Source: an uncultured candidatus Brocadiaceae bacterium | GTDB taxonomy: Bacteria > Planctomycetota > Brocadiia > SM23-32 | Reading direction: 5' to 3' | Assembly (NCBI GenBank): GCA_964572825.1 | Contig: CAZNGS010000020.1 | Location: 1 to 59,866 of the forward strand | Length of the DNA stretch: 59,866 bases | Part shown: positions 21,325 to 48,299 of the stretch, in pieces | Numbering within the stretch: the stretch's first letter is position 1 | How the letters are laid out: each line of letters opens with the position of its first letter | Made by a program: the position numbers and the translations under genes | The notes under the pieces: generated by a model | The model's database searches: none | What the model saw: only the letters and a program-made list of their open reading frames with translations | Told to the model about the DNA's origin: nothing

Positions 21325-21388
21325 AAGACCTCCATCAATATCCGAAAGAGGCCCGGAGACTTACCGCAGGAACGGAAGGGCGCAGACC

Positions 21389-22768
21389 ATGAGTGTAGTG
21401 CTCGAGGTGACCAGAGGTCGGCACGCGGGCAGGGAGTTCAAGCTCGACGGCCACGAGACCTTCATGGTAGGGCGGGGGAACAAGGTGCAGTTTCGTATTC
21501 TGGGCGACCGCTTCTTCTCGCGCTATCACTTCATGATCGAGGCCAACCCCCCCGAGTGCTTCCTGCGCGACCTGGGCAGCACGAACGGGACCTTCGTCAA
21601 CGGCCGCCGGGTGCGCCAGGTCCACCTGAGCGACGGGGACCGGATAAGGGGCGGCAAGACGGAGCTGGTTGTCCACGTGCGTGAGGAACCGGCCGAGGCG
21701 GCCGCATCGGAACCAGCACCCGGGCCGGCGGCCGTCGGCGCGCCGGACATGGGCACCACTTTCTCGGCCCGGGCCCCCGACAGGGGCGCGGGCAAAGAAC
21801 TGCATTGCGCCATCTGCGGCAGGATCGCCGAGGAGACGCGCCTGGGCGACCTGGAGGACACGCGCTTGATCAGCTATGTGTGCGAGGACTGTCACCACGA
21901 GAACCGGGACGAGACGCATCCCATCCCCACCTTCGAGGTGCTCGACGAACTGGGAAGGGGCTCCCTGGGGCCCGTCTACAAGGCCAGACGCCTCAACACC
22001 GACAAGCTGGTGGCCCTGAAGGTCGTCCCGCCCCGCCTGGGCGTCAACCCCCGGGCCGTAAAGCTGTTCCTGCGCGTGATGCAGCTCAGCGGCGGCCTCG
22101 ACCATCCCAACATCGTGCCGCTGGTCGAGATGGGCGAGTCGGGCGGCGAGCTGTGGATCGCCACGGAGTATGTCGACGGCGTGGACGCGGGGGAACTCAC
22201 CGCTCGCCGGGGTGGCACGCTTCCCCCGGCGGAGGCGGTGGACATCACCTGTCAGGTTCTGGACGCGCTGCACTACGCCCACCGGCTCAATCTGGTCCAC
22301 CGCGACGTGAAACCCACCAACGTCCTGGTCACCGGCGAGCCGGGGGACTACGACGCCAGGCTGGGCGATTTCGCCCTGATGAAAAACATCGACGAGGCCG
22401 GCCTCAGCGGCATCACGCGCAGCGGTGAGGTGCGGGGCACCGTGCCTTTCATGCCGCCGGAGCAGATCATCGACTGCCGCTTCGTCAAACCCGCCGGTGA
22501 CATCTACCAGGTCGGCGCCACGCTCTACTGGCTGCTGACGGGCGAGTATGCGCACGACTTCGAGGCCCGGGACAAACGCGGGGAGGTCAAGGACCCCTTC
22601 CTGGTCATTCTGGAGGACCCGGTGGTGCCCGTTGGCGAGCGGGAACCATCGGTCCCGCAAGCTCTGGCGCGGGTGGTCGAGACGGCGCTGGCGCGCGCGC
22701 CCGAGGATCGGTTCGAATCCGCCGGCGAGATGAAAGCCACGCTGCGGAAGGCCCTCGGCTCAGGGTGA
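21389..22768 (+). CDS. FHA-domain Ser/Thr protein kinase.
   Basis: An N-terminal FHA domain (FMVGRGNKVQFRILGDRFFSRYHFMIE...GSTNGTFVNGRRV) precedes a Cys-rich segment CAICG...CEDCHHE. A Hanks kinase follows (LGRGSLGPVYKA, ALKVV, HRDVKPTNVLV, DFAL). Confidence 0.8.
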   Translation: MSVVLEVTRGRHAGREFKLDGHETFMVGRGNKVQFRILGDRFFSRYHFMIEANPPECFLRDLGSTNGTFVNGRRVRQVHLSDGDRIRGGKTELVVHVREEPAEAAASEPAPGPAAVGAPDMGTTFSARAPDRGAGKELHCAICGRIAEETRLGDLEDTRLISYVCEDCHHENRDETHPIPTFEVLDELGRGSLGPVYKARRLNTDKLVALKVVPPRLGVNPRAVKLFLRVMQLSGGLDHPNIVPLVEMGESGGELWIATEYVDGVDAGELTARRGGTLPPAEAVDITCQVLDALHYAHRLNLVHRDVKPTNVLVTGEPGDYDARLGDFALMKNIDEAGLSGITRSGEVRGTVPFMPPEQIIDCRFVKPAGDIYQVGATLYWLLTGEYAHDFEARDKRGEVKDPFLVILEDPVVPVGEREPSVPQALARVVETALARAPEDRFESAGEMKATLRKALGSG

Positions 22769-24460: not shown

Positions 24461-24463
24461 GGG

Positions 24464-26968
24464 CTATCGCCCCTCCTTCAGCACGATACGCGAGACACCG
24501 GCGTCTGTTCCAACCCAGAGGCTCCCGTCCAGATCGACGGCGATGGAGGCGATGTCCGCCTTGCCGGCGAGGAAATCCGTGGTGGTCCAGTTTCGCCAGA
24601 CCTCTCCGTCGAAGCAGCTCAGCCCGCCTCCGACGCAGCCTGCCCAGACGCGTGCGGCCCGGTCAACTGCCAGCCCGGTCACGACATTGGACGCCAGTCC
24701 ATCCGTGGCCGTGTAGTGTCGCCATGTTCCCTCCCGGCGGCAGTACAGCCCGCCACTCCACAGTCCCGCCCACAACTCCCCGTCTGGACCGAAAGTTACC
24801 TCCAGAACGCTCTTGCCCCGCGTGGGCTCCGGTAGCTGGAAAGTCTCTCCGTTCAGCACGCAAAGACCGCTCGGGGTGGCAAGCCAGCAGCGGTCGCGCG
24901 AGTCGATGGCGATGAGTTCCACAACGGGGTCCGGCAGGCCGTCCCTGGTGGTGTAGCTTCGCCAGAGCCGCCCGTCGTAGCGAAACAGACCCTGGCGCGT
25001 GCCGACCCACAGCACGTCATCGCCGTCGACTGCCAGGGACTCCACCGTTTTCAGACCGGGGTGCTCGGCCGGCGTGAGTTTTTGCCACTTCGTGCCGTCG
25101 AAGCGAGCTAGACCGCCTTCCTCGGGGGGCCAGTCATGACCGCCGCACCAGACCCCTCCCCGGCGGTCGAAGGCGATGGAGTTGATCACCTCACAGGGCA
25201 GGCCGTCCTGCCGTGTATAGTGTTCCCAACTGCGGCCGTCGAACTTTACGAGCCCTTTGTTCGTGCCGAACCATTTCATACCGTCCCGGCTGACCGCCAC
25301 GAACTGCATGGCACTGCACGGCATACCGGCTTCTTCGCGGTAGCTTTTCCAGCGATCGTTCTCGAAACAGCAGACCCCGCGGGCGGTGGCCAGCCAGACG
25401 CTGCCCCGGGGATCGGCCGCCATGTCCCTGACGGTACCGCCCGGAAAGTCCTCACCCGCCACGAAGGTGCGCGTGCGCGAACCTTCCCGCACGACGAGCC
25501 CTTTTTCGTCCGCGCTCCACGCCCGGCCCCTGGCATCCCGCATTTGCAGCTCCTTCTCCAGGCCCCGGGGGGAACTGCTGACCGGCAGTTCCTGCCAACC
25601 GGTCCCGTCGAAGCGCAGAAGAACGTTGCCTGAACGCGCCATGCGGTCCTCCGGTCCAGCTTCCGTTTCGAGTAACTGGAAGTACCACGCCCCGTCTTGC
25701 CCCGGAGCCACCGCCTCAACCTGTGCCTCCAATGGATGGAAGGATTTCTGGCCCGAAGCCAGCCGCAGGCGATATGCTCCTCCATGAATTCCCCACCAGA
25801 CCTCCTGCTCGGAAGCCGCGATGCAAAGCACATCGTTCGGATCGTGATAGCTGGTTATCCGGGCGCGGGCCGTGGCCAGATCAACCCGAACCACGCCACC
25901 GCGGTCGCCACCTTGCTGCTGCCGGTCGGACTCATCCAGCTTCGGAGGCTCTTCCAAGACCGTCTGGACCTTTGCCTCTCTGTCAGTATGCTCGTCAGTC
26001 GCGGGCTCCCTCAGGCTACCTGGCTCCGGGGAAGACTCCTGGGTCGCCAGCAGTACGCCGACAAGGCCGGCGAACAGGATAAATATCACGGCCGCTCCCG
26101 CCATGATCGCCCACCTCGCGCCTTGCCCTCCGCGCTTCGCGGCGACGCGCTCGCCCCGCAGCCAGCTTTCCAGGTCCCGGGATAGGGCTTCCGCCGTCGC
26201 GTAGCGGTTGTCGGGCGCTTTGTGCAGGCATTTCAGGCAGACGGTTTCCAGACCCCGGGGGATGCTGCGATCGAGCTCCCGGGGCGGGGTCACCTGCTCG
26301 CTGCAGACAGCGTTCAGCACCGCTGCTGCGTTGTCTCCTTCGAACGGCGGGCGGCCGGTCAGGACTTCGTAGAGCATCGCCCCCAGGCCGTAGACGTCGC
26401 TTCTCGGGCCGATCTTATCGCTGTCGCCCTCGGCCTGCTCCGGGCTGATGTAGGCGGCCGTGCCCACTGCCCTGCCCGGCATGGTCAGGGTAAACTGGGC
26501 GTCCACCTCCCGTGCCAGGTCGAAGTCGGTGATGTACGGCGTGCCGTCCTCGGCCACCATCACGTTGGAGGGCTTCAGGTCGCGGTGCATCACCCCCTGC
26601 TCGTGGGCGTAGTGCACCGCACAGGCGACCTGCGTCACGATACGCACCAGCCGCTCCCGGTCTTCCGGGCCTTCGGCCTCCCGGATGAGTTCCTCCAGGG
26701 AGCGGCCCTCGACGTAGTCCATGGTAAAGTAGGTGCGGTTCCCCACCCGGCCCATGGTGAACAGGCGCACGATATTCGGGTGGCGAAGCCGGTCCAGGAT
26801 GGCCGCCTCGCGGCTGAAGCGCCCGAACGCCTGGCGGGAGGAGACCTCGGGGTTGAGGATCTTAAGGGCAACGGTGCGCTCCAGCTCCGGCTGCCGGACC
26901 TTGTACACACGCCCCATACCCCCCTCGCCGAGCTTGCCCAGTATCTCATATTGCCCGAACTTCGCCAT
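24464..26968 (-). CDS. Ser/Thr protein kinase with a C-terminal beta-propeller repeat domain (two-component-regulator propeller / Y_Y_Y-like).
   Basis: Kinase motifs GKLGEGGMGRVYK, ALKIL, HRDLKPSNVMV, DFDLAR, then a TM helix. The C-terminal half carries repeated W..GT..GL..YDG / GLP motifs. The start was placed at MAKFGQYEIL (26968) with a [11 protein letters not shown]. Confidence 0.75.
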   Translation of the reverse strand: MAKFGQYEILGKLGEGGMGRVYKVRQPELERTVALKILNPEVSSRQAFGRFSREAAILDRLRHPNIVRLFTMGRVGNRTYFTMDYVEGRSLEELIREAEGPEDRERLVRIVTQVACAVHYAHEQGVMHRDLKPSNVMVAEDGTPYITDFDLAREVDAQFTLTMPGRAVGTAAYISPEQAEGDSDKIGPRSDVYGLGAMLYEVLTGRPPFEGDNAAAVLNAVCSEQVTPPRELDRSIPRGLETVCLKCLHKAPDNRYATAEALSRDLESWLRGERVAAKRGGQGARWAIMAGAAVIFILFAGLVGVLLATQESSPEPGSLREPATDEHTDREAKVQTVLEEPPKLDESDRQQQGGDRGGVVRVDLATARARITSYHDPNDVLCIAASEQEVWWGIHGGAYRLRLASGQKSFHPLEAQVEAVAPGQDGAWYFQLLETEAGPEDRMARSGNVLLRFDGTGWQELPVSSSPRGLEKELQMRDARGRAWSADEKGLVVREGSRTRTFVAGEDFPGGTVRDMAADPRGSVWLATARGVCCFENDRWKSYREEAGMPCSAMQFVAVSRDGMKWFGTNKGLVKFDGRSWEHYTRQDGLPCEVINSIAFDRRGGVWCGGHDWPPEEGGLARFDGTKWQKLTPAEHPGLKTVESLAVDGDDVLWVGTRQGLFRYDGRLWRSYTTRDGLPDPVVELIAIDSRDRCWLATPSGLCVLNGETFQLPEPTRGKSVLEVTFGPDGELWAGLWSGGLYCRREGTWRHYTATDGLASNVVTGLAVDRAARVWAGCVGGGLSCFDGEVWRNWTTTDFLAGKADIASIAVDLDGSLWVGTDAGVSRIVLKEGR

Positions 26969-27190
26969 ATGCACCCTCTCCGTGCCGTTGCCCCATGCGG
27001 CAAGCCGCCCGGCGACGTGGTTTCTTGTGATTTCCACCTCCACCGTGCAGCCGCAGGCGATTCACCGACTTCGTCTCCTCGCCTGTACAACAGCGCGCAT
27101 GTTCCACGGTCCTTCTGAATGATATACGCCCTCGGGGGAAATCTTACACCAAAGTGCCTCCTTTGTCATCCTTTTATTTTCTTCGGCGCT

Positions 27191-27860: not shown

Positions 27861-28850
27861 TCAGTCGTCGAACGCGGCATCGAAGGCGATCTGGCTGGGA
27901 GGGAAGTCAACGGACCGCACGAAGGCACAGGCCTCCTCGGCGCCGTGCTCGCGGTCCATGCCGCTGTCCTCCCACTCCACCGAGAGCGGCCCTTCGTAGC
28001 CGATCCGGTTCAGCGCGCGGATGACGGCCTCAAAGTCGACGTCTCCGTGCCCCAGGCTGCGGAAGTCCCAGCCCCGACCGGGCTGTCCGAAGTCCAGGTG
28101 AGAACCCAGAATGCCGCTGCGCCCGTCCAGCGTCACGGCGCAGTCCTTCATGTGGACGTGGTAGATGCGGTCGGGGAATGCCTTTATGAATTCGTCCGGC
28201 TCCATGCCCTGCCACAGCAGGTGGCTGGGGTCGAAGTTGAAGCCGAACTCCTCCCGCCCGTCGAGGGCCTCCAGGGCCCGCCGCGCCGTTACGATGTCGA
28301 AAGCTATCTCGGTCGGATGGACCTCCAGGCCGAACCGGACGCCGCACTCCCGATAGACGTCGAGGATGGGGTTCCAGCGTTCGGCCAGCAGGCCGTAGCC
28401 CTCTTCGATCATCGCGGGGGGCACCGGGGGGAAACTGTAGAGCAGGTGCCAGATGGAGCTGCCCGTGAAACCGTTGACGACTTCGATTCCCATGTTCTTC
28501 GCCGCGCGGGCGCAGTCCTTGAGGTTCTCGATGGCCCAGGCGCGCATCTTCTCGTGGTCGCCGGCGATCTCTTCCGGGACGAACGCATCGTGCCGTTCGT
28601 CCAGGTTGTCCAGGACGAGCTGGCCGGCCAGGTGGGTGCTGATAGCCCAGCATTGCAGGCCGTGCTCTTCCAGCAGAGCCCTGCGCTCGTTGCAGTAGTC
28701 CACGCTCTCGGCGCCCTGCGCGGGGTCGAAATGGTCGCCCCAGCAGGCCAGCTCCAGGCCATCGTAGCCCCACGCGCTGGCCTTCTCCGCCAGTTCCCGC
28801 AGGGGCATGTCCGCCCACTGTCCGGTAAACAACGTGACCGGTCTTGCCAT
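27861..28850 (-). CDS. Sugar phosphate isomerase/epimerase (xylose-isomerase-like TIM barrel).
   Basis: 329 aa containing GYDGLEL, EVHPTE, HVHMKD and a C-terminal acidic residue, the typical metal-binding pattern of AP-endonuclease-2/xylose-isomerase-fold proteins. Confidence 0.75.
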   Translation of the reverse strand: MARPVTLFTGQWADMPLRELAEKASAWGYDGLELACWGDHFDPAQGAESVDYCNERRALLEEHGLQCWAISTHLAGQLVLDNLDERHDAFVPEEIAGDHEKMRAWAIENLKDCARAAKNMGIEVVNGFTGSSIWHLLYSFPPVPPAMIEEGYGLLAERWNPILDVYRECGVRFGLEVHPTEIAFDIVTARRALEALDGREEFGFNFDPSHLLWQGMEPDEFIKAFPDRIYHVHMKDCAVTLDGRSGILGSHLDFGQPGRGWDFRSLGHGDVDFEAVIRALNRIGYEGPLSVEWEDSGMDREHGAEEACAFVRSVDFPPSQIAFDAAFDD

Positions 28851-28950
28851 TGCGTCTCTCCCTCCAAAAGAAGCAAACCGAGCTGTGCAATGCCGTTGGG
28901 CTCCTTTTAGCGGACCCTGCCGGCGAATGCAAGTCCACCGGCGGCGCGCC

Positions 28951-30417
28951 TCATATGTAACTGCGTTCGGCGCACTCGGCGGTGAATCGCTGGTATTTCG
29001 CCTCGTAGACCTCTCTCAGTTCGGTCCGGGGAAGCACCTCTTTGTCCACCTTGACCATGGCGCGGGCGGCTTCCAGCAGATCGGCGTGACATTCGTAGGA
29101 GGCGGCCACAATGGCCGCGCCCATCGCCGCTCCCGTCAGGGCCGGCCGCACGATGCGGCAGTTGAGCGTGTCGGCCCGTATCTGAAGCCAGGCGTCGCTG
29201 GCCGCCCCGCCCCCCGCTGAGTAGATCGTGCCGCCGACTCGAGCGCCCAGGTCGGCCAGTGTCTCGTAGGCCAGCCGCTCCAGGCAGGCCACCCCCTCCA
29301 GGCAGCCTGCGAACAATTCCGCGCGCGACTGCGGCGTCCCCACGATGAACCCCTCCGCCCCCGGCCGGCGGAAGGGGAAGCGCTCGCCCCGTCCCACCAG
29401 AGGGTAGACCACCAGGTCCGTGGGGCTGTGGTCCAGGGCGACCGCGCTGAGGGCCTCGGTGTCCTCGGCTCCAAAGCCGGTCTCGCGGCCGGCCACCCGG
29501 CCCGCGGCCAGACACTCCGCCCCCGTATTGCTGGCTCCCCCGGGCAGCCACCAGCCGGCGGGGTGGCGGTGGCAGTAGATGCGACCGGCGGGGTCCAGCA
29601 GGAGCTTCTCGCTGACCCCCTTGATCACCAGGGTTGTGCCGATGGTCGCGTTGTACTGGCCGCGGTCGACGGCGCCGCTGGAGAGCTGGGAGGCGCAACC
29701 GTCCGTCATGCCGGCCACCACGGGGGTGCCGCGCCGGAGCCCCGTCTGCTCGGCCCGCTGTCGGGTGACCCTGCCGGCCAGTTCCCCCGGCCTCTGAACC
29801 CCGGGAAGGCGGGATGCGTCCAGGCCGAGTGCGTTCTCGATGAATGGGGGCCAGCGGTCCTCCAGCAGGTCGTAGCCGAACTTGAGCATGTTCGTCTGAT
29901 CGGAGCGGTCCCAGCAGCCCGTCAGCCAGCCGATGAGGTAGTCCGTGGGCGCGGTGAACGTGGCCGCCCGGCTGTACACTTCCGGTCTGTGCCGCTTCAA
30001 CCACAGGATCTTGGGCAGACCGAACGAAGAGCTGAACCGGTAGCCGAGCCGGTTCGTCAGGTCGATGCCCGCGCGCTGGAGATCCTGCGCCTCCCGCTCG
30101 CTGCGCGAATCGTTATACATGATGGCCGGCATCAGGGGCCGGTGCTCCGAGTCCAGCACGCACAGCGTTCCGCTGGTGCCGGTGACCCCCACGGCCGCGA
30201 TGCGGTCCGCTTTCACTTCCCCCAGCGCCTGTCCCACGGCTCGGCGAGCGGCGGATACCCAACCGCCCGGTTCCTGCTCGCGCCATCCGTCCGGCAGCGA
30301 GGTTTCTCCCAGGGCGAACGCCACCTGGCCCCGGCCCACCGGCCGGCCACCGGCGTCCACCACCACACACCGCACCCCCTGAGTGCCCAGGTCAATGCCC
30401 GCAAAAAGTGACGCCAT
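28951..30417 (-). CDS. FGGY-family carbohydrate kinase (xylulokinase/ribulokinase-like).
   Basis: The N-terminus GIDLGTQGVRCVVVD and the C-terminus GGGAASDAWLQIRADTL are the FGGY N-terminal and C-terminal signatures. Confidence 0.8.
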   Translation of the reverse strand: MASLFAGIDLGTQGVRCVVVDAGGRPVGRGQVAFALGETSLPDGWREQEPGGWVSAARRAVGQALGEVKADRIAAVGVTGTSGTLCVLDSEHRPLMPAIMYNDSRSEREAQDLQRAGIDLTNRLGYRFSSSFGLPKILWLKRHRPEVYSRAATFTAPTDYLIGWLTGCWDRSDQTNMLKFGYDLLEDRWPPFIENALGLDASRLPGVQRPGELAGRVTRQRAEQTGLRRGTPVVAGMTDGCASQLSSGAVDRGQYNATIGTTLVIKGVSEKLLLDPAGRIYCHRHPAGWWLPGGASNTGAECLAAGRVAGRETGFGAEDTEALSAVALDHSPTDLVVYPLVGRGERFPFRRPGAEGFIVGTPQSRAELFAGCLEGVACLERLAYETLADLGARVGGTIYSAGGGAASDAWLQIRADTLNCRIVRPALTGAAMGAAIVAASYECHADLLEAARAMVKVDKEVLPRTELREVYEAKYQRFTAECAERSYI

Positions 30418-35347: not shown

Positions 35348-36658
35348 ATGGAGATCAGCCTGCGATACGGGCGCCGGCGCGTCACCGTGCACGTGCGCGA
35401 AGATGCGACCGTCTATGAATCGGAGTATCCTGAGCCGGCCGACGAGCCTGCGCAAACGGTCCTGCAGGCGGTGCGGGCGCCGATACAGCCCCCCTCGCTG
35501 AAAGAGGCACTGCGCGCCCGCAGGGCCGGTCCGGTCGTGGTCATCTGCTCGGATGTCACGCGGCCGATTCCCTACCATGCCTTCCTGGCCGATTTGCTGG
35601 CCGAGGTGGTCGAGGCGGGCGTTCGGCGAGACGACATCCTGATCCTCATTGCGACGGGCATGCACCGGCCCTGTACCCCCGAGGAGCAGCGGCAGATGCT
35701 GGGGCCCGCGGCCGACGGGTACCGGGTTCTGAACCACGACGTCGGGGACGAGTCCCAACTGGTCGAACTCCCCGTGCGCAGCGGGGCGGGTTCGCCGGTG
35801 CGTCTGAACCGCCATTACGTTGAGGCCGGTTTCCGGCTCATCACGGGCCTGGTGGAGGCGCACTTCATGGCCGGTTTCTCGGGCGGGCGGAAGGCCGTCT
35901 GCCCCGGCCTGACCTCCCTGGATACCATCCGGCAGTTCCACGGGTATGAGTTTCTGAACCATCCCCTGGCGCGCAACGCCACGCTGGAAGGCAATCCGCT
36001 CCACGAGGAGGCGCTCTCCGTGGCGCGGGCGGCACCGGCCGAGTTCAGCGTCAACGTGGTGATGGACCAGCGCCGCTGGCTGGTGCGGGCCTTCGCGGGG
36101 GACATGGAGGCGGCCCACGAGGCGGCGTGTCGATTCGTCGCCCGGTGCGCCTGCCCGCGGGTGGAGCGCCCGGTGGACGTGGTGCTGACCTCCAGCGGCG
36201 GCTACCCGCTGGATGCCACCTTCTACCAGTGCGTGAAGGGATTCGTCTCCTGCCTGCCCGCCGTGCGCGAAGGGGGCTCCATAATCGCCCTCGGCGGATG
36301 CAGCGAGGGGATCGGCAGTCCGGAGTACTCCCGCACCATGAAGCGCTACGACGGCCGGTGGCGCAGATTCCTGGAAGACATTCGGACAGGCCGGTCCTTC
36401 GTCAGAGACCAGTGGCAGTACCAGATGCATGCCAGGGCGCTTGAGAAAGTGGGGCGGAAGAATCTCCACTTTGTGACCGATGGGCTGCCCCCGTCCGAGC
36501 TGGCCCGACTCTCGGTATCTCCCCACTGCGTGCGGGCGGAGGGTGTGCAGGATACCGTGCAGGCCCTTCTGGACCGGATGACCCGGTCGGGCGCGTCCGT
36601 TGCGGTCTTGCCCGAAGGACCCTACTGCGCCCCCGTGGGCCGGGAGACCGGTCCGTGA
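35348..36658 (+). CDS. LarA-like protein (nickel-pincer-dependent lactate racemase family, DUF2088).
   Basis: 436 aa. The N-terminal domain VICSDVTRPIPYHAFLADLLAEV...ILIATGMHRP and the segment HFMAGFSGGRKAVCPGL match the LarA family. Confidence 0.7.
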   Translation: MEISLRYGRRRVTVHVREDATVYESEYPEPADEPAQTVLQAVRAPIQPPSLKEALRARRAGPVVVICSDVTRPIPYHAFLADLLAEVVEAGVRRDDILILIATGMHRPCTPEEQRQMLGPAADGYRVLNHDVGDESQLVELPVRSGAGSPVRLNRHYVEAGFRLITGLVEAHFMAGFSGGRKAVCPGLTSLDTIRQFHGYEFLNHPLARNATLEGNPLHEEALSVARAAPAEFSVNVVMDQRRWLVRAFAGDMEAAHEAACRFVARCACPRVERPVDVVLTSSGGYPLDATFYQCVKGFVSCLPAVREGGSIIALGGCSEGIGSPEYSRTMKRYDGRWRRFLEDIRTGRSFVRDQWQYQMHARALEKVGRKNLHFVTDGLPPSELARLSVSPHCVRAEGVQDTVQALLDRMTRSGASVAVLPEGPYCAPVGRETGP

Positions 36659-36792
36659 TCCGGCTGCGCGGGGAGAGGGAGCGTAACAGCCGGAACGGCC
36701 GCCTTGCGCGTGGAAAATGGCCCGCGCAGGCGGTATGCTAGACTAAAGAGGTGGCCCGCACATCACTCACCCCGAGCCCAGGGAAATAAAAG

Positions 36793-39174
36793 ATGCATGA
36801 CCGCAGCGGGAAACTGAAACGTTACGTGCACGCGCTGTGCGACGCGGGCGTGCGGCGCACGGCGTTCTTCAAGCTGGTCGGCGAATCGCTCCGGCAGACG
36901 CAGGGCGAGTCGGTCCCCATGCGGCGGGCAAAGGCCCTGGCTCACCTGCTGGACAACGTTGACCAGGTGGTGCTGCCCTACGAGCTGGTGGCGGGCTCCA
37001 TCCTCGGCCGATGGCCGCTGGCCGAGCAGCAGCCCGAGGGGGAGGGGTCCCTGGAGGAGGCGCGCCGCGTCGTTGCCGAGCACCTGCACAACCGGGACGA
37101 GGAGGCGGCCCACCGTGTCGTCTCCCGCTGGGCGCTGATGGACCGGGACCATTACGATTCCAGCATACCTTTCGACGAGCTTCAGAACATCTCGCGGCAG
37201 GTCTACGAGGAGGTGTCGGAGGAGCACGACGTGCCGTTCGCCGAGGTGTATCGGGTGCTGGAGCTCTACTTTACGTTCCATTACGGCGAGGACCGCCGTC
37301 TGACGGACCGGCTCTGGTTCTCCTCGAATCACCTGCACCTGAACTACAAGCGGCCGCTGCAGTGGGGGCTGGGCGGCCTTCGGGACCGCATCATCGAAAA
37401 GCGGGATTCGGCGCCCGAGGAAAAGAGGGAGTTCTACGAGACCACACTGATCGCCGTCGAGGCCTGCATCCGCTTCATCGAGCGCTACACGGAGACGCTG
37501 GACGCGGAGGCGGATCGGCTGGAAGCGAAAGACCCCGAGCGGGCGCGGGAGCTGCGCGGCATGGCGGAGGTCAGCCGCCGCGTGGCGGAGGACGCGCCGC
37601 AGACATTCCGCGAGGCCATCCAGCTCGTCTGGTACGTCCACATCATCAGCAACATCGCGGGCGGCTCCGCCATGTCCTTCGCCCGGTTCGACCAGTACAT
37701 GTTCCCGTTCTACCGGCGTGACGTCCAGGAGGGGCGCATCACCCGGGACCAGGCCAAAGAGCTCATCGAGAGCATCTGGCTGAAGGTCAACGAGCCCAAG
37801 ATGCGGACCGTGCAGAGCATCTGTCTGGGCGGAGTGACCCCGGAGGGAGAGGACGGCACGAACGAGCTGACCTACGTCTGCCTGGAGGTGGCGGGCGAGG
37901 CGGGCGAGCCCTATCCCAACACCCACCTGCGATTGCACAAGGGCGCGCCTGAAGATCTGTGGGACAAGGCCGTCGAGACGTTGCTGAAGGGCGTGGGGCA
38001 TCCCGCGCTGTGGAATGACGAGTCCATGGTCACCGGCATGGTCCGGCAGGGCATTCCCCCTGAGGATGCCCGGCAGTACTATCCCATGGGCTGCATCGAG
38101 GTGATGCTGGAGGGCATGCAGCCCACCTACCAGGGCGGCACGGGCCTGATGTTCGCCGGCACCCTGGAACTGGTCTTCAAGAACGGCGGCCCCAACTACG
38201 CCGGCCAGACCGGCCTGGAGACCGGCGAGCTGTCCAGTTTCGAGACGTTCGAGGATTTCCTCGAGGCCTACCTGGCCCAGATCCGTCACCACATCAGCTC
38301 CGGCATTCGCGGCACGGAGGAGAGCTTTTTCGACCGGGGGGAGAGGTACGATCCCCTCGCCTCAGCGCTGATCGAAGGGTCCCTGGAGAGCGGCGTGGAC
38401 CCCTGCCAGGGCGGGGCGAAGTACGACCGGCTGTTCTGCAACAACGGGCAGGGCTTCGGGACCGCCGTGGATTCCCTGGTTGCGGTGAAGAGGTTCGTCT
38501 ACGACGAGGGCGAGTTGACGCTGGAGGAGATGAAGGAGCTGCTGGACGAGGACTTCGCCGGGCACGAGGCCCTGCGCCAGCGCCTGAGCAACCGGGCCCC
38601 CACCTTCGGCAACGACATCGACGAGGTGGACGAGATCGCGGTGAAGGTCTTCGACGCATTCGCCGACACCTCCATCGAGTACGACTCTCAGATCGGCGCC
38701 ACCTACTTTCCGCAGATGTTCAGCTATCACAGTCACGTGTGGCGGGGCGAGATAACCGACGCCACGCCGAACGGCCGCCCCCGCGGCGCCACCTACAGCG
38801 ACGGCATGGGACCGTCCCAGGGCAAGGACGCGCTGGGCCCCACCGCCCTCATAAACTCGGTGACCCGGCTGGACCACACAAAGCTCACCGGCGGCGCCGC
38901 CTTCAACATAAAGCTGGAGCCCGGCTTCGTGGGCGGCCCCGAGGGACGCCGGGTCTTCAAAACCCTCCTGAAGACCTACCAGGAGCGTGGGGGCATGCAG
39001 ATCCAGGTCAACCTGGTGGACCAGAAGACGCTCGAGCACGCGCAGGAACACCCCGAGGAGCACCGCAACCTCATCGTGCGCGTGGCCGGGTTCTGCGAGT
39101 ACTTCACCAGCCTGGACCGGAAGGTGCAGGACGAGATCATTCAGCGCACCGCCCAGGAGCAGGCGACGCGCTGA
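36793..39174 (+). CDS. Glycyl radical enzyme (PFL2 / glycerol-dehydratase / 4-hydroxyproline-dehydratase-like family).
   Basis: 793 aa. The C-terminus NLIVRVAGFCEYFTSLDRKVQDEIIQRT aligns with the PFL glycyl-radical motif [27 protein letters not shown]. The preceding TPNGRPRGATYSDGMGPSQG matches TPDGRRAGAPFGPGANP. The active-site Cys sits in YYPMGCIEVMLEG. Confidence 0.8.
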   Translation: MHDRSGKLKRYVHALCDAGVRRTAFFKLVGESLRQTQGESVPMRRAKALAHLLDNVDQVVLPYELVAGSILGRWPLAEQQPEGEGSLEEARRVVAEHLHNRDEEAAHRVVSRWALMDRDHYDSSIPFDELQNISRQVYEEVSEEHDVPFAEVYRVLELYFTFHYGEDRRLTDRLWFSSNHLHLNYKRPLQWGLGGLRDRIIEKRDSAPEEKREFYETTLIAVEACIRFIERYTETLDAEADRLEAKDPERARELRGMAEVSRRVAEDAPQTFREAIQLVWYVHIISNIAGGSAMSFARFDQYMFPFYRRDVQEGRITRDQAKELIESIWLKVNEPKMRTVQSICLGGVTPEGEDGTNELTYVCLEVAGEAGEPYPNTHLRLHKGAPEDLWDKAVETLLKGVGHPALWNDESMVTGMVRQGIPPEDARQYYPMGCIEVMLEGMQPTYQGGTGLMFAGTLELVFKNGGPNYAGQTGLETGELSSFETFEDFLEAYLAQIRHHISSGIRGTEESFFDRGERYDPLASALIEGSLESGVDPCQGGAKYDRLFCNNGQGFGTAVDSLVAVKRFVYDEGELTLEEMKELLDEDFAGHEALRQRLSNRAPTFGNDIDEVDEIAVKVFDAFADTSIEYDSQIGATYFPQMFSYHSHVWRGEITDATPNGRPRGATYSDGMGPSQGKDALGPTALINSVTRLDHTKLTGGAAFNIKLEPGFVGGPEGRRVFKTLLKTYQERGGMQIQVNLVDQKTLEHAQEHPEEHRNLIVRVAGFCEYFTSLDRKVQDEIIQRTAQEQATR

Positions 39175-39210
39175 CCCGGGCCCAATTCTTCTTCGGCGAG
39201 AGGGCGCTTC

Positions 39211-40143
39211 GTGAACAAACCCTCCGGTAGGCCTGCCATCTGCGTGGTGGGGGCCTGCAACATCGACCTGGTCAGCTACGTCCCTCGCCTGCCCGAGATG
39301 GGCGAGACACTCCATGGCAGCGACTTCCAGATGGGTTTCGGCGGCAAGGGGGCCAACCAGGCCGTCATGGCGGCCAAACTCGGCGCCCACGTCTCCATGA
39401 TCGCCAAGCTGGGGGAGGATACTTTCGGCCAGGACACGCTGGAAAACTTCCAATCTCTCGGGATCGACACCGCCCACGTGCATTCCACCGCGGACGCGTC
39501 TTCGGGTGTGGCCCCTATAGCCGTCGACCCGGAGGGGCAGAACTCGATCATCATCGTGATGGGGGCCAACGACCTGCTGACCGAAGAGGAGATCGAGGCC
39601 GCCCGCCCGGCCATCGCCGCCGCCGACGTGCTGGTATGCCAGTTCGAGATCCCACTGGACCTTAACCTGAAGGCCCTCCGAGTCGCCCGGGAAGAGGGGG
39701 TGGCCACCATCTTCAATCCCGCCCCGGCCAGGGCGGACCTGCCGGAGGAGTTCTACGGCCTCAGTTCCGTCTTCTGCCCCAACGAGAGCGAGACGGAGCT
39801 GCTGACCGACATGCCCGTGGGAACCCCGGCCGAGGACGAGGCGGCCGCGCGGGCCCTCATCGAGCGCGGCGCCGGGAAGGTCATCCTGACCCTGGGTGAG
39901 CGGGGCAGCCTTATCGTCACACCCGACTCCGCCCGGCGCGTTCCGACCGAGAACGTGCGGGCGGTGGACTCGACCGGGGCGGGTGACGCCTTCGTGGGCA
40001 GCCTGGCCTACTTTATGGCCGTTGACAGGCCCCTGGAGGAAGCGGTCCGGCGGGCGAACGCCATCGCCGCGCGCTCCGTGACGAAGTCCGGCACCCAGAC
40101 CTCCTTTCCCGACCGGGAGGAAGTCGCCGACTTGCTCGATTGA
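39211..40143 (+). CDS. rbsK: Ribokinase (PfkB family).
   Basis: The N-terminus has ICVVGACNIDLV...GGKGANQAV. The C-terminus has DSTGAGDAFVGSLAY, the PfkB signature 2. Confidence 0.75.
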   Translation: MNKPSGRPAICVVGACNIDLVSYVPRLPEMGETLHGSDFQMGFGGKGANQAVMAAKLGAHVSMIAKLGEDTFGQDTLENFQSLGIDTAHVHSTADASSGVAPIAVDPEGQNSIIIVMGANDLLTEEEIEAARPAIAAADVLVCQFEIPLDLNLKALRVAREEGVATIFNPAPARADLPEEFYGLSSVFCPNESETELLTDMPVGTPAEDEAAARALIERGAGKVILTLGERGSLIVTPDSARRVPTENVRAVDSTGAGDAFVGSLAYFMAVDRPLEEAVRRANAIAARSVTKSGTQTSFPDREEVADLLD

Positions 40144-40146
40144 GCG

Positions 40147-40812
40147 GTGCGAGACACCACAAACGCAGACAAGGGGAGATGGAACGAAGTGATAAAGCGC
40201 TGGGACGTTGTCTACATCGGACACCCCTCGCGGAACCGCTACTGGGGCGAGAGCGACGATCGGCCCGTCCGCACGCCGGTCTGCACATGCACGCTGGTGA
40301 CCGGGGGCGACTTCCGCCTGCTGGTGGACCCCTCTTTCCCCGACGCCGACAGGATGGCCTCGGAGCTGCACCGCCGCAGCGGTCTATCTTTCGAGGATAT
40401 TGGCCTCGTCTTCGTCACCCACGGCCACGGGGACCACACCGCCGGGCTGGCCAACTTCCCCGACGCCACGTGGCTCGCGGGTCAGTCGGTCGCGCGGGAC
40501 CTGAATGCCTCGGGTCGGCTCGGGAAGGAAGTCCTGGACGCCGCGGAGCATCTGCCTCCGGGCGTGGAGCTGGTGCCCACCCCGGGACATGCGGCGGGCC
40601 ACTGCAGCCTGCGGTTCGACTGCGACGGGCAGAGCGTGGCGATCGCCGGCGACGCCACCATCACGCGGGATTTCTGCCTGGACGGCCTCAGCTCCTTCGG
40701 CAGCCCCACCAAACAGGAACGGGAGACGGTGCGCAAGATCCGGCAGATGGCGGATGCCATCGTCCCGGGCCACGACAACTGGTTCCTGTCCACGGACAGG
40801 GGCGAGAAATGA
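40147..40812 (+). CDS. MBL-fold metallo-hydrolase.
   Basis: VFVTHGHGDHTAGL (HxHxDH), a later PTPGHAAGHCS, and a terminal PGHD. The start is ambiguous: GTG at 40147, or a downstream GTG preceded by AAGGGGAGA. Confidence 0.65.
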   Translation: MRDTTNADKGRWNEVIKRWDVVYIGHPSRNRYWGESDDRPVRTPVCTCTLVTGGDFRLLVDPSFPDADRMASELHRRSGLSFEDIGLVFVTHGHGDHTAGLANFPDATWLAGQSVARDLNASGRLGKEVLDAAEHLPPGVELVPTPGHAAGHCSLRFDCDGQSVAIAGDATITRDFCLDGLSSFGSPTKQERETVRKIRQMADAIVPGHDNWFLSTDRGEK

Positions 40813-40860
40813 AAGCGGGCTCCGGGAGATTTCCGCTAACGGGCAGTGCGGTCGTTCTGC

Positions 40861-41701
40861 TCAGAAAAACTCCGCTCCCGCGCAGCGCGCGCAGATGAAA
40901 TCGCCTCCGGGCATCATGTAACCCCCCTGCGCCAGCCGGATGACCCTTCCACATTCGGCGCAGTGCGTGGGCTCATAGTCCGGCGGGTTCTCCAGCTTCT
41001 CGAAGTTCCACTCGTTGGTCCGGCGTGCACGTGCTGCTCGGTGGTGACGTAGAAATCGCGGCATTCCTCACACTCTTTCCAATCGCCCCCATGCCCCTCC
41101 GCGTGGTGTACGCCGCAGACGGTGTAGCGCCTGTGGTTTCGATGGCAACTGTTCCGGGCGTAGGAGAAGAACCTGTAAGTCCATTCATCATCGCAGATCC
41201 AGTTATCGCAGCACTCCGTGCGGGTCAGGTTGATCGTGTTGCCGCACAACCCGCATTTGGGGCGACCCTGTCCCGTGGCTGCCGCGTCTTCTTCCAGTTC
41301 GGCCAGTTGCCGGGCCCATCCGTCCAGGTTCGCCTCTTCCTCCGGCATGTAGCCCGTCTGCTGCAGAGCGTCGGCCAGAGTGTCCCGGCGAATTGGGCCT
41401 TCAAGCCCCCCTGCGAGGCCGCCAAATCCCTGGCCGCATTTGCCCGGGCCTGCCGGTCGCTCTCAGAACGTCGTTCAGGGTTGACGAAGAGGGTCTGCCG
41501 GGATTGCTCCCGGCCCGACCCCCGGCGACGGAGGCGGATGGCCGGCGCATAGCCGCCCTGCGGGTCCCGGCAACTCTCCGGTTCCACCGGCCGATTCCCC
41601 GAGCGAGCGGGCCGCACCTTCAAGAGGCAGCAATGCTTATACTTCTTGCCGCTGCGGCACGGGCACGGGTCATTCCGGCGGACTTTCTTCTCCATCTGCA
41701 T
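40861..41701 (-). pseudogene. Cys-rich protein with an N-terminal SEC-C metal-binding motif. It is split across three frames, by frameshift or assembly indels.
   Basis: Piece 1 is MQMEKKVRRNDPCPCRSGKKYKHCC (SEC-C motif). Piece 2 is MPEEEANL...CGLCGNT...CCDNWICDDEW...CGVHHAEGHGGDWKECEECRDFY. Piece 3 is ...THCAECGRVIRLAQGGYMMPGGDFICARCAGAEFF. The piece-1 to piece-2 junction coincides with a C6 homopolymer (~41407-41412). Confidence 0.3.
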
Positions 41702-41851
41702 TTCGCCAAACAGATGAAGTAAATCCTGCCTTCCGCACCGTCACGTGAATCATAAGACACGCGTCGCGCGCTGCCAAATCCATGTGCGTTGGCGGGGCCC
41801 CTCTGCCCGGAGAGACTGCCCCGGCATCGAGGGATGAGCCTGCCCGGTGCT

Positions 41852-42000
41852 CTGGACCCATGCACGTCCGGGCGGGAAGTTGGAGGGACCCGCTCTGTCG
41901 CGTCCGAGCCCCCTGGACCAATGCACGCCGGGGCGGGAAGTTGGAGGGACGCGCTCTGTCGCGTCCGAGCCCCCTGGACCAATGCACGCCGGGGCGGGAA
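41852..42000. repeat. Tandem direct repeat of about 61 bp (~2.4 copies). Each copy has a perfect hairpin GGACGCG-CTCTGT-CGCGTCC.
   Basis: Units span 41852-41912, 41913-41973 and a partial 41974-~42000. Copies are >90% identical (CTGGACCAATGCACGCCGGGGCGGGAAGTTGGAGGGACGCGCTCTGTCGCGTCCGAGCCCC). Confidence 0.6.
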
Positions 42001-42034
42001 ACCCGACAGCGCCCAGGGGCCGCCGGCGATTGGC

Positions 42035-42063
42035 TTGACAGTCCGGCGGGGGGGCTGTATATT
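42035..42063 (+). promoter_or_regulatory. Sigma70-type promoter upstream of gap: TTGACA, a 17-nt spacer, then TATATT.
   Basis: The -35 TTGACA (42035-42040) and the -10 TATATT (42058-42063) are exact consensus with ideal spacing, about 125 nt upstream of the gap ATG. An AAAGGAG RBS sits at 42171-42177. Confidence 0.5.
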
Positions 42064-42187
42064 CAATCTTCTGACGGGGGCATTGCGCCGGGTTGCTGCC
42101 TCTCCCCGAGGTTTGCCCCGGACCGTGCATTCTCAAGTGCCCTGGCTGTCTACTCAATTCTTGAATCGCTGAAAGGAGCCGCACAGC

Positions 42188-46020: not shown

Positions 46021-46824
46021 ATGATCGACCGATCGATCCGAGTGACAAAAGACGACATCGTCGCCGGCCTGCGTGACGTCGGGCTCCGGCTCGCCGACGT
46101 CGTCCTCGTGCACAGCTCCCTGAGCGCGTTCGGGCACGTGGTCGGCGGCGCCGAAACCGTCGTCGACGCCCTCCTCGAAACCGTCGGACCAGGGGGCACC
46201 GTCGCCGTGCCCACGCACACATGGGACCGCATCGGCCCCGACAGGCCCGTCTTCGACTTCCGCACCACCCCCTGTTGCGTGGGGACCATCCCTGAAACCT
46301 TCCGCCGCCGGGACGAGGTCCTTCGGGGCCTCCATCCCACCCATTCGTGCGCCGCCATCGGTCCACTCGCCTGGGAGCTGCTACGCGACCACCAGACCCA
46401 GATCACGCCCTGCGGCAGCAAGTCCCCCTACCAGCGCCTCATGGACGTCGGCGGCAAAATCGCGTTCCTCGGCGTCACACTCGAGGTCAACACCAGCTTC
46501 CATGCCCTCGAGGAGATGGCCTGCGTCCCCTACGTGCTGGATGAATTTCAGATGTTGTTCACGATCGATCGTGAGGGGAAAAAGGAACCCGTCCCCTCGC
46601 GGCGACACGGGGGCGGCGTTACCCGCCGCTTCGAGGAGATGGAACCCGTGCTGCTCAGGAGCGGAGCCCTGCGCCGGGGCACCATCGGCCGGGCCGCCGT
46701 CCGGCTCCTGCACGCCGGCAAGATGCGCGATCTGTTCATGCCCATGTTCGCCGAGGACCCCTTCTGCCTCCTCACGCCGGAGTCGGCCGAGCGGGAACGC
46801 TCCCGCCACAGGCGGCCACGCTGA
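46021..46824 (+). CDS. AAC(3)-family aminoglycoside N-acetyltransferase-like protein.
   Basis: VLVHSSLSAFGHVVGGAETVVDALLETVGPGGTVAVPTHTW and the later GVTLEVNTSFHALEEM match the Antibiotic_NAT/AAC(3) fold signature. Confidence 0.7.
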   Translation: MIDRSIRVTKDDIVAGLRDVGLRLADVVLVHSSLSAFGHVVGGAETVVDALLETVGPGGTVAVPTHTWDRIGPDRPVFDFRTTPCCVGTIPETFRRRDEVLRGLHPTHSCAAIGPLAWELLRDHQTQITPCGSKSPYQRLMDVGGKIAFLGVTLEVNTSFHALEEMACVPYVLDEFQMLFTIDREGKKEPVPSRRHGGGVTRRFEEMEPVLLRSGALRRGTIGRAAVRLLHAGKMRDLFMPMFAEDPFCLLTPESAERERSRHRRPR

Positions 46825-46844: not shown

Positions 46845-48110
46845 TCACACCGGCCGGGACATCGGCGTCAGTTCGTCACCGTCCCACACCCGCGCGATCG
46901 GTCGGATTACCTCCAGTCGTTCGCGCCGGTCGGCGTCCCGCAGTGCGGCCTGCGACAGGACCATATACTCCAGGTCCAGCGTACTGCGTATGCGGGCGAA
47001 CTTCAGCTCCTCCAGCGGTATAGGTCCCAGCGAGCGGATTGCGAACCGCAGCATGGCGGCGTCCGACCCCAGGCAGATGGGCATGTTCACCCGGGCCAGG
47101 AACGTGCTGGTCCGGGCGTTCTCGTAGGTGGCCTGCCAGTCGATGGCGTCCCGCAGCCGCTCGTGAATGAAGTCTGCCAGTCCCATCCCGATGGCATTTC
47201 CGTGCGAGGCGGCCGTCAACGAGCGCACCGCGATCCGCCCGATCTCCGGCCGTTTCGGCTCGGGCTCGCCCTCGATCCTCAGCCGACCCACGATGTTCGG
47301 ATCCAGGCCCACCCCGCTGATGTCCTTCCCCATCTCGTCCACCACCAGCAGGTCCATCTCGTCCAGCGGCAGGCCGGGCATGCGCTTCCTGGCGACGGCC
47401 AACAGGTCCGGCTCGCGCTCCGGTATCCGGTCGGCGGGGATCGCCTCCAGCACGCAGGTGCGGTCATACTCGTTTTTGACGATCCCCACGCCCAGGATCA
47501 GGTTGGAGTGCCGGATGATCTGCCGGGCGGCGGCGGGCATGTAGTCCCGCAGCCCACGCACGCCGTGACTGTGGATCGCCAGCGCCTGCGCATGCTTGCC
47601 CAGCCCGATCACCAGCATCTTCATCAGGCCGCTCTCGTAGGGCCCGTGGAAGTCGGTGTGGACCTTCACCCGGTTGATCGCGATCGTGGCGTCGGCCTCC
47701 GCCGCGTTGCGGTCGAAGTAGACCGGCACGGGGCAGTCCTCCTGCGGCAGGTGCACCACCTCCATCGAAGAGCGTATCGGAGCCCCCACGGCGTCCGCCG
47801 TCAGGCCGTATTCTTCCAGCACGGCACGCTGCCCCTCGGCCGTAGCGGCGCCGTGGCTTCCCATGGCCGGCACCAGGAAGGGCTCAGCCCCCTGCGCGTG
47901 GACCCACTGGACCACCCCGCCGACCACCGTCCGCAGGTCGTGAATCCCGCGGCTTCCCACCGCGACAGCCACCCGCGCACCGCCCGGCACGTCCACCCCG
48001 CAGTCGGCGAGTTCGCCCCGAAGGTGGTCTTCCAGGTCCTCGATGCGGCTGTCGTCGAACTTCTGCCGCACCAGGCAAAGCGGCGGCAGTTCGGGCCGGG
48101 ACTCTGCCAT
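46845..48110 (-). CDS. Second LarA-like (DUF2088) protein.
   Basis: The start was placed at MAESRPELPP (48110) with an AGGAGAGGAG RBS. The domain runs VAVAVGSRGIH...PAMGSHGAAT...KVHTDFHGPYESGLMKMLVIGLGKH, LarA-like. Confidence 0.65.
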   Translation of the reverse strand: MAESRPELPPLCLVRQKFDDSRIEDLEDHLRGELADCGVDVPGGARVAVAVGSRGIHDLRTVVGGVVQWVHAQGAEPFLVPAMGSHGAATAEGQRAVLEEYGLTADAVGAPIRSSMEVVHLPQEDCPVPVYFDRNAAEADATIAINRVKVHTDFHGPYESGLMKMLVIGLGKHAQALAIHSHGVRGLRDYMPAAARQIIRHSNLILGVGIVKNEYDRTCVLEAIPADRIPEREPDLLAVARKRMPGLPLDEMDLLVVDEMGKDISGVGLDPNIVGRLRIEGEPEPKRPEIGRIAVRSLTAASHGNAIGMGLADFIHERLRDAIDWQATYENARTSTFLARVNMPICLGSDAAMLRFAIRSLGPIPLEELKFARIRSTLDLEYMVLSQAALRDADRRERLEVIRPIARVWDGDELTPMSRPV

Positions 48111-48299
48111 GCGCCCGCTCCTCTCCTTCTGATCTTCGCTCCAAAGCCTCGTCCGCACCCCATTCTCGCAGGCTCCGCCGGCCGGTGCAACGCGCTCACT
48201 GCACCACGGAGCCCGTCCGGTCGGGTCTGATGGAAGAGCAAGCCCTTCGCGCTCGGTTCGTTCCATCGCCGGACCGATGTCAGGGCTCTATGGGGTCCC

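Follow-up and report, generated by a model that had tools for sequence, protein, structure and literature searches.

A conserved four-gene module with a glycyl radical enzyme of a distinct clade and a LarA-type racemase in a candidatus Brocadiaceae bacterium

Glycyl radical enzymes (GREs) that carry a Cys-x-Glu (CxE) motif belong to the 1,2-eliminase and isomerase classes (PMC13450708). Among them, YbiW and PflD of E. coli isomerise anhydro-sugar phosphates, and according to the same 2026 review whole GRE clades remain without any experimental function (PMC13450708). In a different enzyme family, the broad-spectrum nickel-pincer (NPN)-dependent racemase LarA of Isosphaera pallida (LarAIp) racemises lactate, 2-hydroxybutyrate, glycerate and 2,4-dihydroxybutyrate (PMC11851776). 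Here we describe a locus in which genes of both families stand side by side, on a 59,866-nt contig of an uncultured candidatus Brocadiaceae bacterium (CAZNGS010000020.1) that was analysed over its whole length and is referred to below as the window. Our literature search found no paper on the clade to which this GRE belongs and no paper linking the GRE and LarA families. Most likely, the window GRE is an enzyme of the CxE type that breaks a C-O bond by radical chemistry in sugar catabolism and is activated in trans. With moderate confidence, we read the four genes at 35348-40812 as a catabolic operon that represents a lineage-specific variant of a widespread, uncharacterised sugar-metabolism GRE cluster.

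The module and its glycyl radical enzyme

The listing of open reading frames (ORFs) together with codon-position GC, by which real genes were told from shadow frames, reveals four consecutive plus-strand genes (Table 1) with 134, 36 and 3 bp between them. The LarA-family, ribokinase and metallo-beta-lactamase-fold (MBL) neighbours that a sequence-only reading of this DNA had placed around the GRE are borne out by domain and NCBIfam matches. The LarA-GRE-ribokinase-MBL order, for which a check of neighbourhood conservation had been proposed, is kept in a sister species on two ENA contigs, L084 (6.7 kb) and L086 (85.8 kb). A third contig, 4 kb of a metagenome-assembled genome (MAG) labelled Brocadiaceae (L007), starts at the GRE and contains the last three genes of the module.

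Table 1. Positions of the module genes, of the two catalytic loops of the GRE and of the second LarA-superfamily gene
Feature	Positions	Strand	Evidence
Gene 1, predicted LarA-type nickel-pincer (NPN)-dependent short-chain 2-hydroxy-acid racemase/epimerase, 436 aa	35348-36658	+	Lar_N 9.5e-50, LarA_C 6e-19
Gene 2, GRE of the CxE (1,2-eliminase/isomerase) type, 793 aa, GC3 0.91	36793-39174	+	PFL-like 1.4e-128, Gly_radical 4.3e-27
Cys loop of the GRE, G433-C434-I435-E436 (thiyl-radical Cys, general-base Glu; roles after PMC13450708)	38089-38100	+	G433, C434 and E436 invariant in 40 clade members
Glycyl radical loop of the GRE, R763-V-A-G766-F, then clade-specific C-E-Y-F	39079-39093	+	R763 and G766 invariant in 40 clade members
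Gene 3, ribokinase (PfkB family), 310 aa	39211-40143	+	PfkB; TIGR02152 354.5 bits (cut-off 299.65)
Gene 4, small MBL hydrolase, lactonase-like or MBLAC1-like, 221 aa	40147-40812	+	Lactamase_B 9.3e-20; HGHGDH motif
Second LarA-superfamily gene, NPN-dependent isomerase group 22, outside the operon	46845-48266	-	NF052515 489 bits (cut-off 400)

Between the window and the sister species, protein identity amounts to 74.8% for LarA (dN/dS 0.23), 84.5% for the GRE (0.15), 81.9% for the ribokinase (0.13) and 78.8% for the MBL hydrolase (0.25). On L086 the module is flanked by MFS transporters on one side and by PsiE and a heparinase-like gene on the other, none of which is common to the window. Since the four genes were kept together while all flanks changed, and since their dN/dS values span 0.13-0.25, they form a real, selected unit and probably a functional one; from spacing and synteny we infer that this unit is a conserved, co-transcribed operon. 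Downstream of the MBL gene, about 1.4 kb (40813-42187) up to the gene gap lack any ORF whose codon bias is gene-like, as well as any match in Rfam, and a strong promoter-like site (42035-42063) precedes the genes gap, pgk and rpe, which together place the end of the module at 40812. Scans with Rfam and for promoters and terminators returned nothing that bears on regulation of the module.

Glycyl-radical and active-site Cys motifs had been noted in the 793-aa GRE from the sequence alone, and we confirm them, with the GCIE motif at residues 433-436 and the RVAGF motif at residues 763-767. The protein combines the RVxG[FYW] loop of the superfamily with the invariant finger-loop Cys and, in the model, the ten-stranded barrel. 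The AlphaFold model, built on 40 clade sequences, reached a pLDDT of 91.8 and a pTM of 0.92. Domains, motifs, model and a dN/dS of 0.15 show that the enzyme is intact and under purifying selection. Its CxE motif groups it with the 1,2-eliminases and isomerases, and the model resembles the solved GREs of the eliminase and isomerase classes about equally well (TM-score ~0.8, identity 24-29%).

Among solved structures, the nearest to it are those of glycerol dehydratase (381 bits), propanediol dehydratase, PflD, CutC and HypD, all at 24-29% identity. By a wide margin, the enzyme stays below every NCBIfam equivalog cut-off: it scores 425 bits with the HypD model (cut-off 1100), 410 with HpsG (1000), 379 with HpfG (1000), 362 with CutC (1050), 292 with IAD (1100) and 274 with HPAD (1150). 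With TIGR01774, which describes the PFL2/glycerol-dehydratase subfamily, it reaches 505.9 bits, below the cut-off of 678.2. As for PFL proper, the window GRE has Gly-Cys instead of Cys-Cys and scores 100 bits with TIGR01255 against a cut-off of 994.2. Placement in a well-characterised clade such as PFL proper had been named, together with an activase and a canonical partner just outside the window, as what would refute the sequence-only reading, and such a placement is not what we observe: the equivalog cut-offs are missed, identity to solved GREs is at most 29%, and the enzyme occupies a separate branch of the tree described below.

The closest of these relatives, glycerol dehydratase of C. 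butyricum (GD, 1R8W) and 1,2-propanediol dehydratase of R. inulinivorans (PD, 5I2G), are the best matches in both sequence and fold. They share with the window GRE the ten-stranded barrel (TM-score ~0.81), the Cys-x-Glu loop, the RVAG[FY] loop and a His, His180 in the window GRE, that aligns with GD His164. It is nevertheless extremely unlikely that the enzyme is itself a glycerol or 1,2-propanediol dehydratase, as the identity is only 28-29% and, by alignment count, GD His281, Ser282 and Asp447 correspond to Ser292, Ala293 and Gly448. We take GD His164, His281, Ser282 and Asp447 to be the diol-binding residues (in part after PMC13450708). Furthermore, the window GRE lacks 12 residues in the loop that leads to strand 342-346, and its residues 76-177 are left unaligned to GD and PD in the HMMER alignments. 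The genetic context differs as well: the clade of the window GRE occurs with sugar kinases, isomerases and Zn-dependent medium-chain alcohol/polyol dehydrogenases (Zn-ADH) instead of microcompartment or dha/pdu genes, and no shell-protein, aldehyde-dehydrogenase or Fe-ADH partner was found among the annotated neighbour families.

The clade and its sugar-related surroundings

A total of 292 database proteins match the window GRE at E <= 1e-20, and the best 120 of them score 606-1575 bits at 40-85% identity. Scores with the window GRE range from 550 to 1600 bits within the clade, and 381 bits is the highest for any PDB chain. Where sources are named, the database proteins come from Planctomycetota, Kiritimatiellae, Lentisphaerae, Sumerlaeia, Oscillospiraceae, Christensenella and Treponema, to which our genome scan adds Verrucomicrobiota, Anaerostipes and Enterococcus. 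In a neighbour-joining tree of 72 full-length members with E. coli YbiW, PflD and PflB, the members form a single clade with YbiW and PflD outside it, grouped with the proteins of loci L078, L080 and L083. The clade is marked by the signatures NHLxLNY, GGSA[LM]S, a short NEPKMRTVQS loop, MGC[VI]E, FSYxxH and a glycine loop followed by CE[YF]F; the full glycine-loop signature, VR[VI][AG]G[YF]CE[YF]F, contrasts with GYSAFF in YbiW and PflD. These comparisons show that the enzyme is, by sequence, a member of a distinct clade that is separate from all characterised GREs.

From the clade consensus (>=80%) the window GRE departs at just nine positions, none of which lies in the compared motif regions, save for a conservative Val-to-Ile exchange in the Cys loop. 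On account of this small number of departures, the reaction of the GRE is probably constant across the clade, with the surrounding enzymes being the variable part. When metagenomes were scanned with the window GRE, the relatives recovered were at most 52% identical to it, and their loci serve as a control set.

To describe the gene neighbourhoods, we sampled 77 genome loci and several contigs from protein look-ups, giving 81 non-redundant loci in which genes were called, clustered by all-against-all BLASTP and annotated through cluster representatives. Zn-ADH is the most frequent of the tallied partners (53/81 loci) and usually occupies the next gene. Radical-SAM activases of the GRE type occur in 42 of the 81 loci, xylulokinase-like FGGY kinases in 23, with one member above the XylB cut-off, and FucI/AraA-like isomerases of 460-535 aa in 19. 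Subsets of the loci contribute D-lyxose isomerase, a cupin of the phosphomannose isomerase type, aldose 1-epimerase and PfkB kinase, with transport provided by ribose-type ABC transporters or a mannose-type phosphotransferase system (PTS). Regulators of the DeoR, ROK, LacI and SorC families and PdxA with a DUF1537 kinase are found in further subsets. As a whole, this set of neighbours points to sugar catabolism. The idea of a sugar or hydroxy-acid pathway, raised from the window sequence, is supported as regards sugars, the sugar context of the clade being clear; the LarA link is lineage-specific.

Two of the neighbourhoods recall known sugar GREs more closely. Locus L026 carries an FSA-like aldolase after the GRE-activase pair and beside a mannose-type PTS, L061 has both aldolase and PTS too, and the two echo the fsaA-ybiY-ybiW and gldA-fsaB-ptsA-frw-pflDC layouts of E. 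coli. The strongest specific alternative to our reading, in itself unlikely, is an anhydro-sugar phosphate isomerase like YbiW and PflD ('anhydroglycolysis'). In such a route a kinase would make an anhydro-alditol 6- or 5-phosphate, and the GRE would open the ring ether to yield a 1-deoxy-ketose phosphate. An aldolase encoded elsewhere would then release glyceraldehyde-3-phosphate and a small ketone, and this ketone would be reduced by the Zn-ADH in other clusters or become lactate that is racemised by LarA here.

Like the clade, YbiW and PflD (isomerases of 1,5-anhydroglucitol-6-P and 1,5-anhydromannitol-6-P; 8ID7, 8YJO and 8ID0) are sugar-catabolism GREs with a CxE motif, and their layout of PTS, activase and FSA aldolase is common to some distant clade members. 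The window GRE also shares with PflD a Ser, not a His, at the position of GD His281, and kinases are adjacent in most loci. On the other hand, the tree does not place YbiW and PflD within the clade, and the two show 26-29% identity to the window GRE with a glycine-loop tail of GYSAFF instead of GYCEYF, and with 320-346 bits score no better than glycerol dehydratase. Most clade clusters hold aldose-ketose isomerases and a mutarotase, for which anhydro-alditol routes would have no need: aldose 1-epimerase and aldose-ketose isomerases imply a reducing sugar, and anhydro-alditols are non-reducing. Finally, the window holds no aldolase.

Two other substrate types were considered and set aside. A sulfonate, as for isethionate or dihydroxypropanesulfonate (DHPS) lyases, came into view through the FucI-like isomerase, which weakly resembles the sulfoquinovose isomerase SftI (113 bits against a cut-off of 700). 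It was rejected because Asn179-His180 and Phe-Ser-Tyr-x-x-His occupy the regions where the sulfonate-binding Arg/Gln/Arg of IslA would presumably lie. A route through deoxyribose-5-phosphate, with a pentitol phosphate dehydrated to this compound and then split by DeoC, was discarded, as no DeoC-like gene is present in any locus. We likewise dropped the FGGY kinase and xylose-isomerase-like genes at 27861-30417 of the window as parts of the module. The kinase is divergently placed at a distance of 6.4 kb, does not recur within 10 kb of the module on L086 and is a distant relative of the clade-associated kinases, scoring 243 bits with XylB where these reach 363-400.

Further observations were made at individual loci. 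Directly upstream of the GRE of L001, at 8875-9924, lies a gene for a beta-propeller lactonase (PF10282, 6-phosphogluconolactonase-like), and L013 has the same type after the ADH; besides the MBL hydrolase of the window, this is a second, unrelated lactonase type near clade GREs, and a lactone intermediate may be involved. Locus L005, from a Planctomycetota MAG, contains at 3710-7798 a second, different GRE of 763 aa (261 bits to the window GRE) that adjoins a PfkB kinase, a KDPG-type aldolase and an enolase-superfamily gene and looks like another uncharacterised GRE cluster, tied to sugar acids. The same contig (1-3701) and the window (54805-58642) share a redoxin and a methyltransferase in the same order, with an MR_MLE-like enolase-superfamily gene a few genes on, which hints at distant synteny.

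Activation in trans and the nickel-pincer link

GREs are canonically encoded together with their activases, as in pflBA, cutCD and hypD-AE. The sequence-only reading had noted the lack of an activase gene in the window, and our searches agree: CxxxCxxC occurs in no coding-like frame of the whole 59.9 kb, its sole three matches lying in spurious frames, and Pfam and NCBIfam scans of the called window genes returned no radical-SAM, LarB, LarC or LarE gene. The absence of larB, larC and larE from the window, also noted earlier, is thus correct as an observation. As the window is one entire MAG contig, however, the absence of an activase or of larBCE from it is uninformative about the genome.

The wider clade puts this absence into perspective. 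In a profile-quality seed search, we counted those loci that contained an activase scoring 100 bits or more, or in which the GRE had 3 kb or more of sequence to either side. The canonical pairing, with a TIGR02494-type activase nearby, is kept in 43 of 45 loci in the other branches of the clade and is usually split in the branch of the window, which consists mostly of MAGs of the Planctomycetes-Verrucomicrobia-Chlamydiae (PVC) group and has an activase nearby in only 3 of 14 loci (Fisher p = 9e-8). A simple count over the 80 metagenome loci of GRE relatives, nearly all from other clades, gave 62. In the three linked loci of the window's branch (L005, L009 and L016) a canonical TIGR02494 activase lies 1.4-2.6 kb from the GRE, from which it follows that the branch uses ordinary activases that are rarely encoded beside it. 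The term 'orphan' that had been applied to the GRE was therefore too strong, since it was drawn from one MAG contig and since, in this branch, the activase is as a rule encoded away from the GRE. For genome scanning, a missing neighbouring activase is here a lineage habit and no anomaly.

A true orphan, with either an unconventional activator in a lineage that has no dedicated activase or a GRE that no longer uses its glycyl radical, would also account for the 11 of 14 branch loci that lack a nearby activase, for the empty 59.9 kb of the window and for the absence of an activase within 10 kb of the GRE in the sister species. Two radical-SAM genes were examined as candidates and rejected, L003 4863-5978 and L086 1317-2186, which score 43 and 21 bits with the activase profile, compared with more than 200 for true activases. 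By a reading of N-terminal motifs, the former looks AmmeMemoRadiSam-like; the latter, 7.8 kb upstream of the sister-species GRE, looks PflX/COG1313-like, and the window lacks a PflX-like gene as well. The canonical activases within the same branch, the invariant Gly and Cys loops and the strong purifying selection make a true orphan very unlikely. There is also a precedent for unlinked activation in E. coli, where PflA activates TdcE (PMC13450708). Given the branch pattern and the selection on the GRE, the simplest reading is that the enzyme is activated in trans by an activase encoded on another contig. For the PVC-type branch as a whole, in which the activase is almost never linked, reliance on a common or an unconventional activase is a possibility.

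The first gene of the module scores 354.6 bits with the NCBIfam lactate racemase model LarA (NF033504), under its cut-off of 460, and is closer to the broad-spectrum type. Its best solved relative is LarAIp (9EID; formerly LarAH2/SAR), to which it aligns end to end with 300 bits. With residue roles taken from PMC11851776, the protein retains the Arg of DVTRP, the catalytic His residues of GMHRP and EAHF, the NPN-tethering Lys of GGRK, the Ni-ligand His of FHGY and the carboxylate-binding Tyr-Gln-x-x-Lys of FYQCVKG, and is thereby predicted to be a genuine NPN-dependent 2-hydroxy-acid enzyme. Both it and LarAIp are planctomycete enzymes that have all catalytic, NPN-binding and carboxylate-binding residues in common, but the two residues that follow the catalytic His are Leu-Met in LarAIp and Phe-Met in the window enzyme. 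Four selectivity positions have been defined in LarA enzymes, among which a Gln is linked to glycerate preference in the lactate-racemase group (PMC11770544). In the window enzyme these positions appear to hold Phe, Met, Trp and Gln, which would bring it closest to the lactate-racemase group. The window gene lies directly upstream of the GRE, a context that we found in no paper.

A second LarA paralog had been reported for the window; it is real, extends over 46845-48266 on the minus strand and is, more precisely, an NPN-dependent isomerase of group 22, located 7.7 kb downstream of the GRE. A gene of the aminoglycoside 3-N-acetyltransferase family (PF02522, 4.8e-57) at 46021-46824 on the plus strand is convergent with it. 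Group 22 is another branch of the LarA superfamily than that of gene 1. Elsewhere in the clade, group 22 genes immediately precede orthologous GREs, in a Verrucomicrobiota MAG (L008, 500 bits) and in a Bacillota MAG (L019), in which the gene is cut by the contig end (201 bits) and the order is group 22, GRE, ADH, cupin, PdxA, DUF1537. No LarA-superfamily gene was found in 1.0 Mb around the 80 metagenome control loci, nearly all of which belong to other clades. Because group 22 genes adjoin orthologous GREs in both MAGs, adjacency of LarA-superfamily and GRE genes as noise appears unlikely. As far as searched, this nickel-pincer connection is new, and it is partly lineage-specific.

Proposed pathway and other genes of the window

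The two remaining module genes allow roles to be proposed for each step. The best solved matches of the ribokinase are ribokinases (5BYC with 304 bits; 1GQT, which we take to be the E. coli enzyme, with 200 bits). It contains NxD, GGKGANQAV, QFE and GAGD, presumably the motifs of the ribose-binding and catalytic residues, and together with its model score this identifies it as a ribokinase. The MBL hydrolase gave weak matches to the AiiA and AttM lactonase models and to the structures of MBLAC1 and AiiA.

In the proposed mechanism, an unlinked radical-SAM activase would install the radical on Gly766, from where it would be transferred to Cys434 to form a thiyl radical. The thiyl would abstract a hydrogen from a hydroxyl-bearing carbon of a sugar-derived substrate, which might be a polyol, an anhydro-sugar or a sugar phosphate, and Glu436 would deprotonate the substrate hydroxyl. 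Breakage of the adjacent C-O bond, to a hydroxyl, ring ether or other O-substituent, would then give a deoxy-keto product. The chemistry of this step would be that of the glycerol and diol dehydratases and of YbiW and PflD. In most clusters, the Zn-ADH may reduce the carbonyl or prepare the polyol, and the FGGY kinase may connect the route to the pentose phosphates. In the window variant, the ribokinase would take over the kinase role and this connection, LarA would invert a short 2-hydroxy acid (lactate- or glycerate-like) that is made or consumed by the pathway, and the MBL enzyme would hydrolyse a lactone or ester. The presence of LarA and a lactonase-like hydrolase in place of the usual dehydrogenase and isomerase suggests a different entry or exit route around the same radical step, for example through a lactone or through a short hydroxy acid (lactate, glycerate).

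Several points weigh against this reading. No substrate for the GRE could be identified from sequence and context, and no activase was seen for the organism on its 59.9-kb contig. Zn-ADH, the most constant partner in the clade, is missing from the window module, as is a sugar isomerase. The carboxylate site of LarA suits a hydroxy acid, whereas the FucI-like and lyxose isomerases of other clusters imply neutral sugars, which it does not suit, and the evidence for an operon consists of spacing and synteny. The ribokinase resembles an ordinary housekeeping enzyme, and this part of the module could be adjacent without a common pathway. Outside the sister species, the closest LarA homologues (63-64% identity) occupy housekeeping contexts beside secA, mreC and purH, or stand beside glycosidases, with no GRE, and the LarA-GRE adjacency therefore arose in this lineage.

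The last two of these points are also what an absence of any shared pathway would predict. The partners of the GRE would then lie elsewhere, LarA would be a general racemase of lactate or short hydroxy acids, the ribokinase a canonical housekeeping enzyme, and the four genes merely co-located. The surroundings of the GRE in this branch are indeed highly variable, with an isomerase, a short-chain dehydrogenase, GH4, a lactonase or a LarA-superfamily gene immediately before it, depending on the locus. We judge such chance co-location improbable, as the four genes keep their order and tight spacing in the sister species with all flanks different, group 22 genes recur directly upstream of orthologous GREs in the Verrucomicrobiota and Bacillota MAGs, and the control loci hold no LarA-superfamily gene.

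Going beyond the lineage-specific sugar operon that we favour, a bolder and rather doubtful proposal is that the clade performs an undescribed GRE reaction, in which radical cleavage of a C-O bond in a substrate derived from pentoses or hexoses would lead several sugars into central metabolism, and that nickel-pincer isomerases joined it repeatedly, with the LarA type taken up in the window and group 22 in the Verrucomicrobiota and Bacillota MAGs. If true, such recruitment would be the first functional coupling of a GRE with a nickel-pincer enzyme in one pathway. The module also suggests that two unusual cofactor systems may meet here.

The clade is widespread among PVC, Bacillota and spirochaete genomes, ranging from environmental, polysaccharide-degrading PVC bacteria to gut genera such as Christensenella and Anaerostipes. 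This distribution, its consistent sugar kinase, isomerase and dehydrogenase partners and its about equal distance from every known class make it a good experimental target. Its reaction, if solved, would probably constitute a new radical route of anaerobic sugar breakdown alongside 'anhydroglycolysis'. The cluster takes a compact form in the window, with a nickel-pincer racemase and a ribokinase in the places of its usual partners, and this narrows the experiments.

The rest of the window (GC ~67%) has the gene content that is usual in PVC bacteria: Ser/Thr kinases are numerous, and there are a protein with an FGE-sulfatase domain and large exported proteins in which Pfam recognises no domain. 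The regions 9207-11498 and 21281-27061 hold four genes for Ser/Thr protein kinases, of which one includes an FHA domain and another Reg_prop repeats. The run of plus-strand genes at 11509-21324 looks like a membrane-remodelling or stress module. It comprises an AAA ATPase (12180-13358), a Snf7/ESCRT-III-like protein (13359-13964; PF03357 27.1 bits, just under the cut-off of 27.3), an SPFH/Band-7 protein that bears several zinc ribbons (15391-17256) and additional zinc-ribbon proteins, including one fused to the FGE-sulfatase domain (18801-20213). At 4022-6790 on the plus strand, a 922-aa fusion joins a VTT/DedA membrane domain to a pyridine nucleotide-disulphide oxidoreductase. An IS66-family transposase fragment (59518-59865, minus strand) is located at the contig end and probably accounts for the assembly break there.

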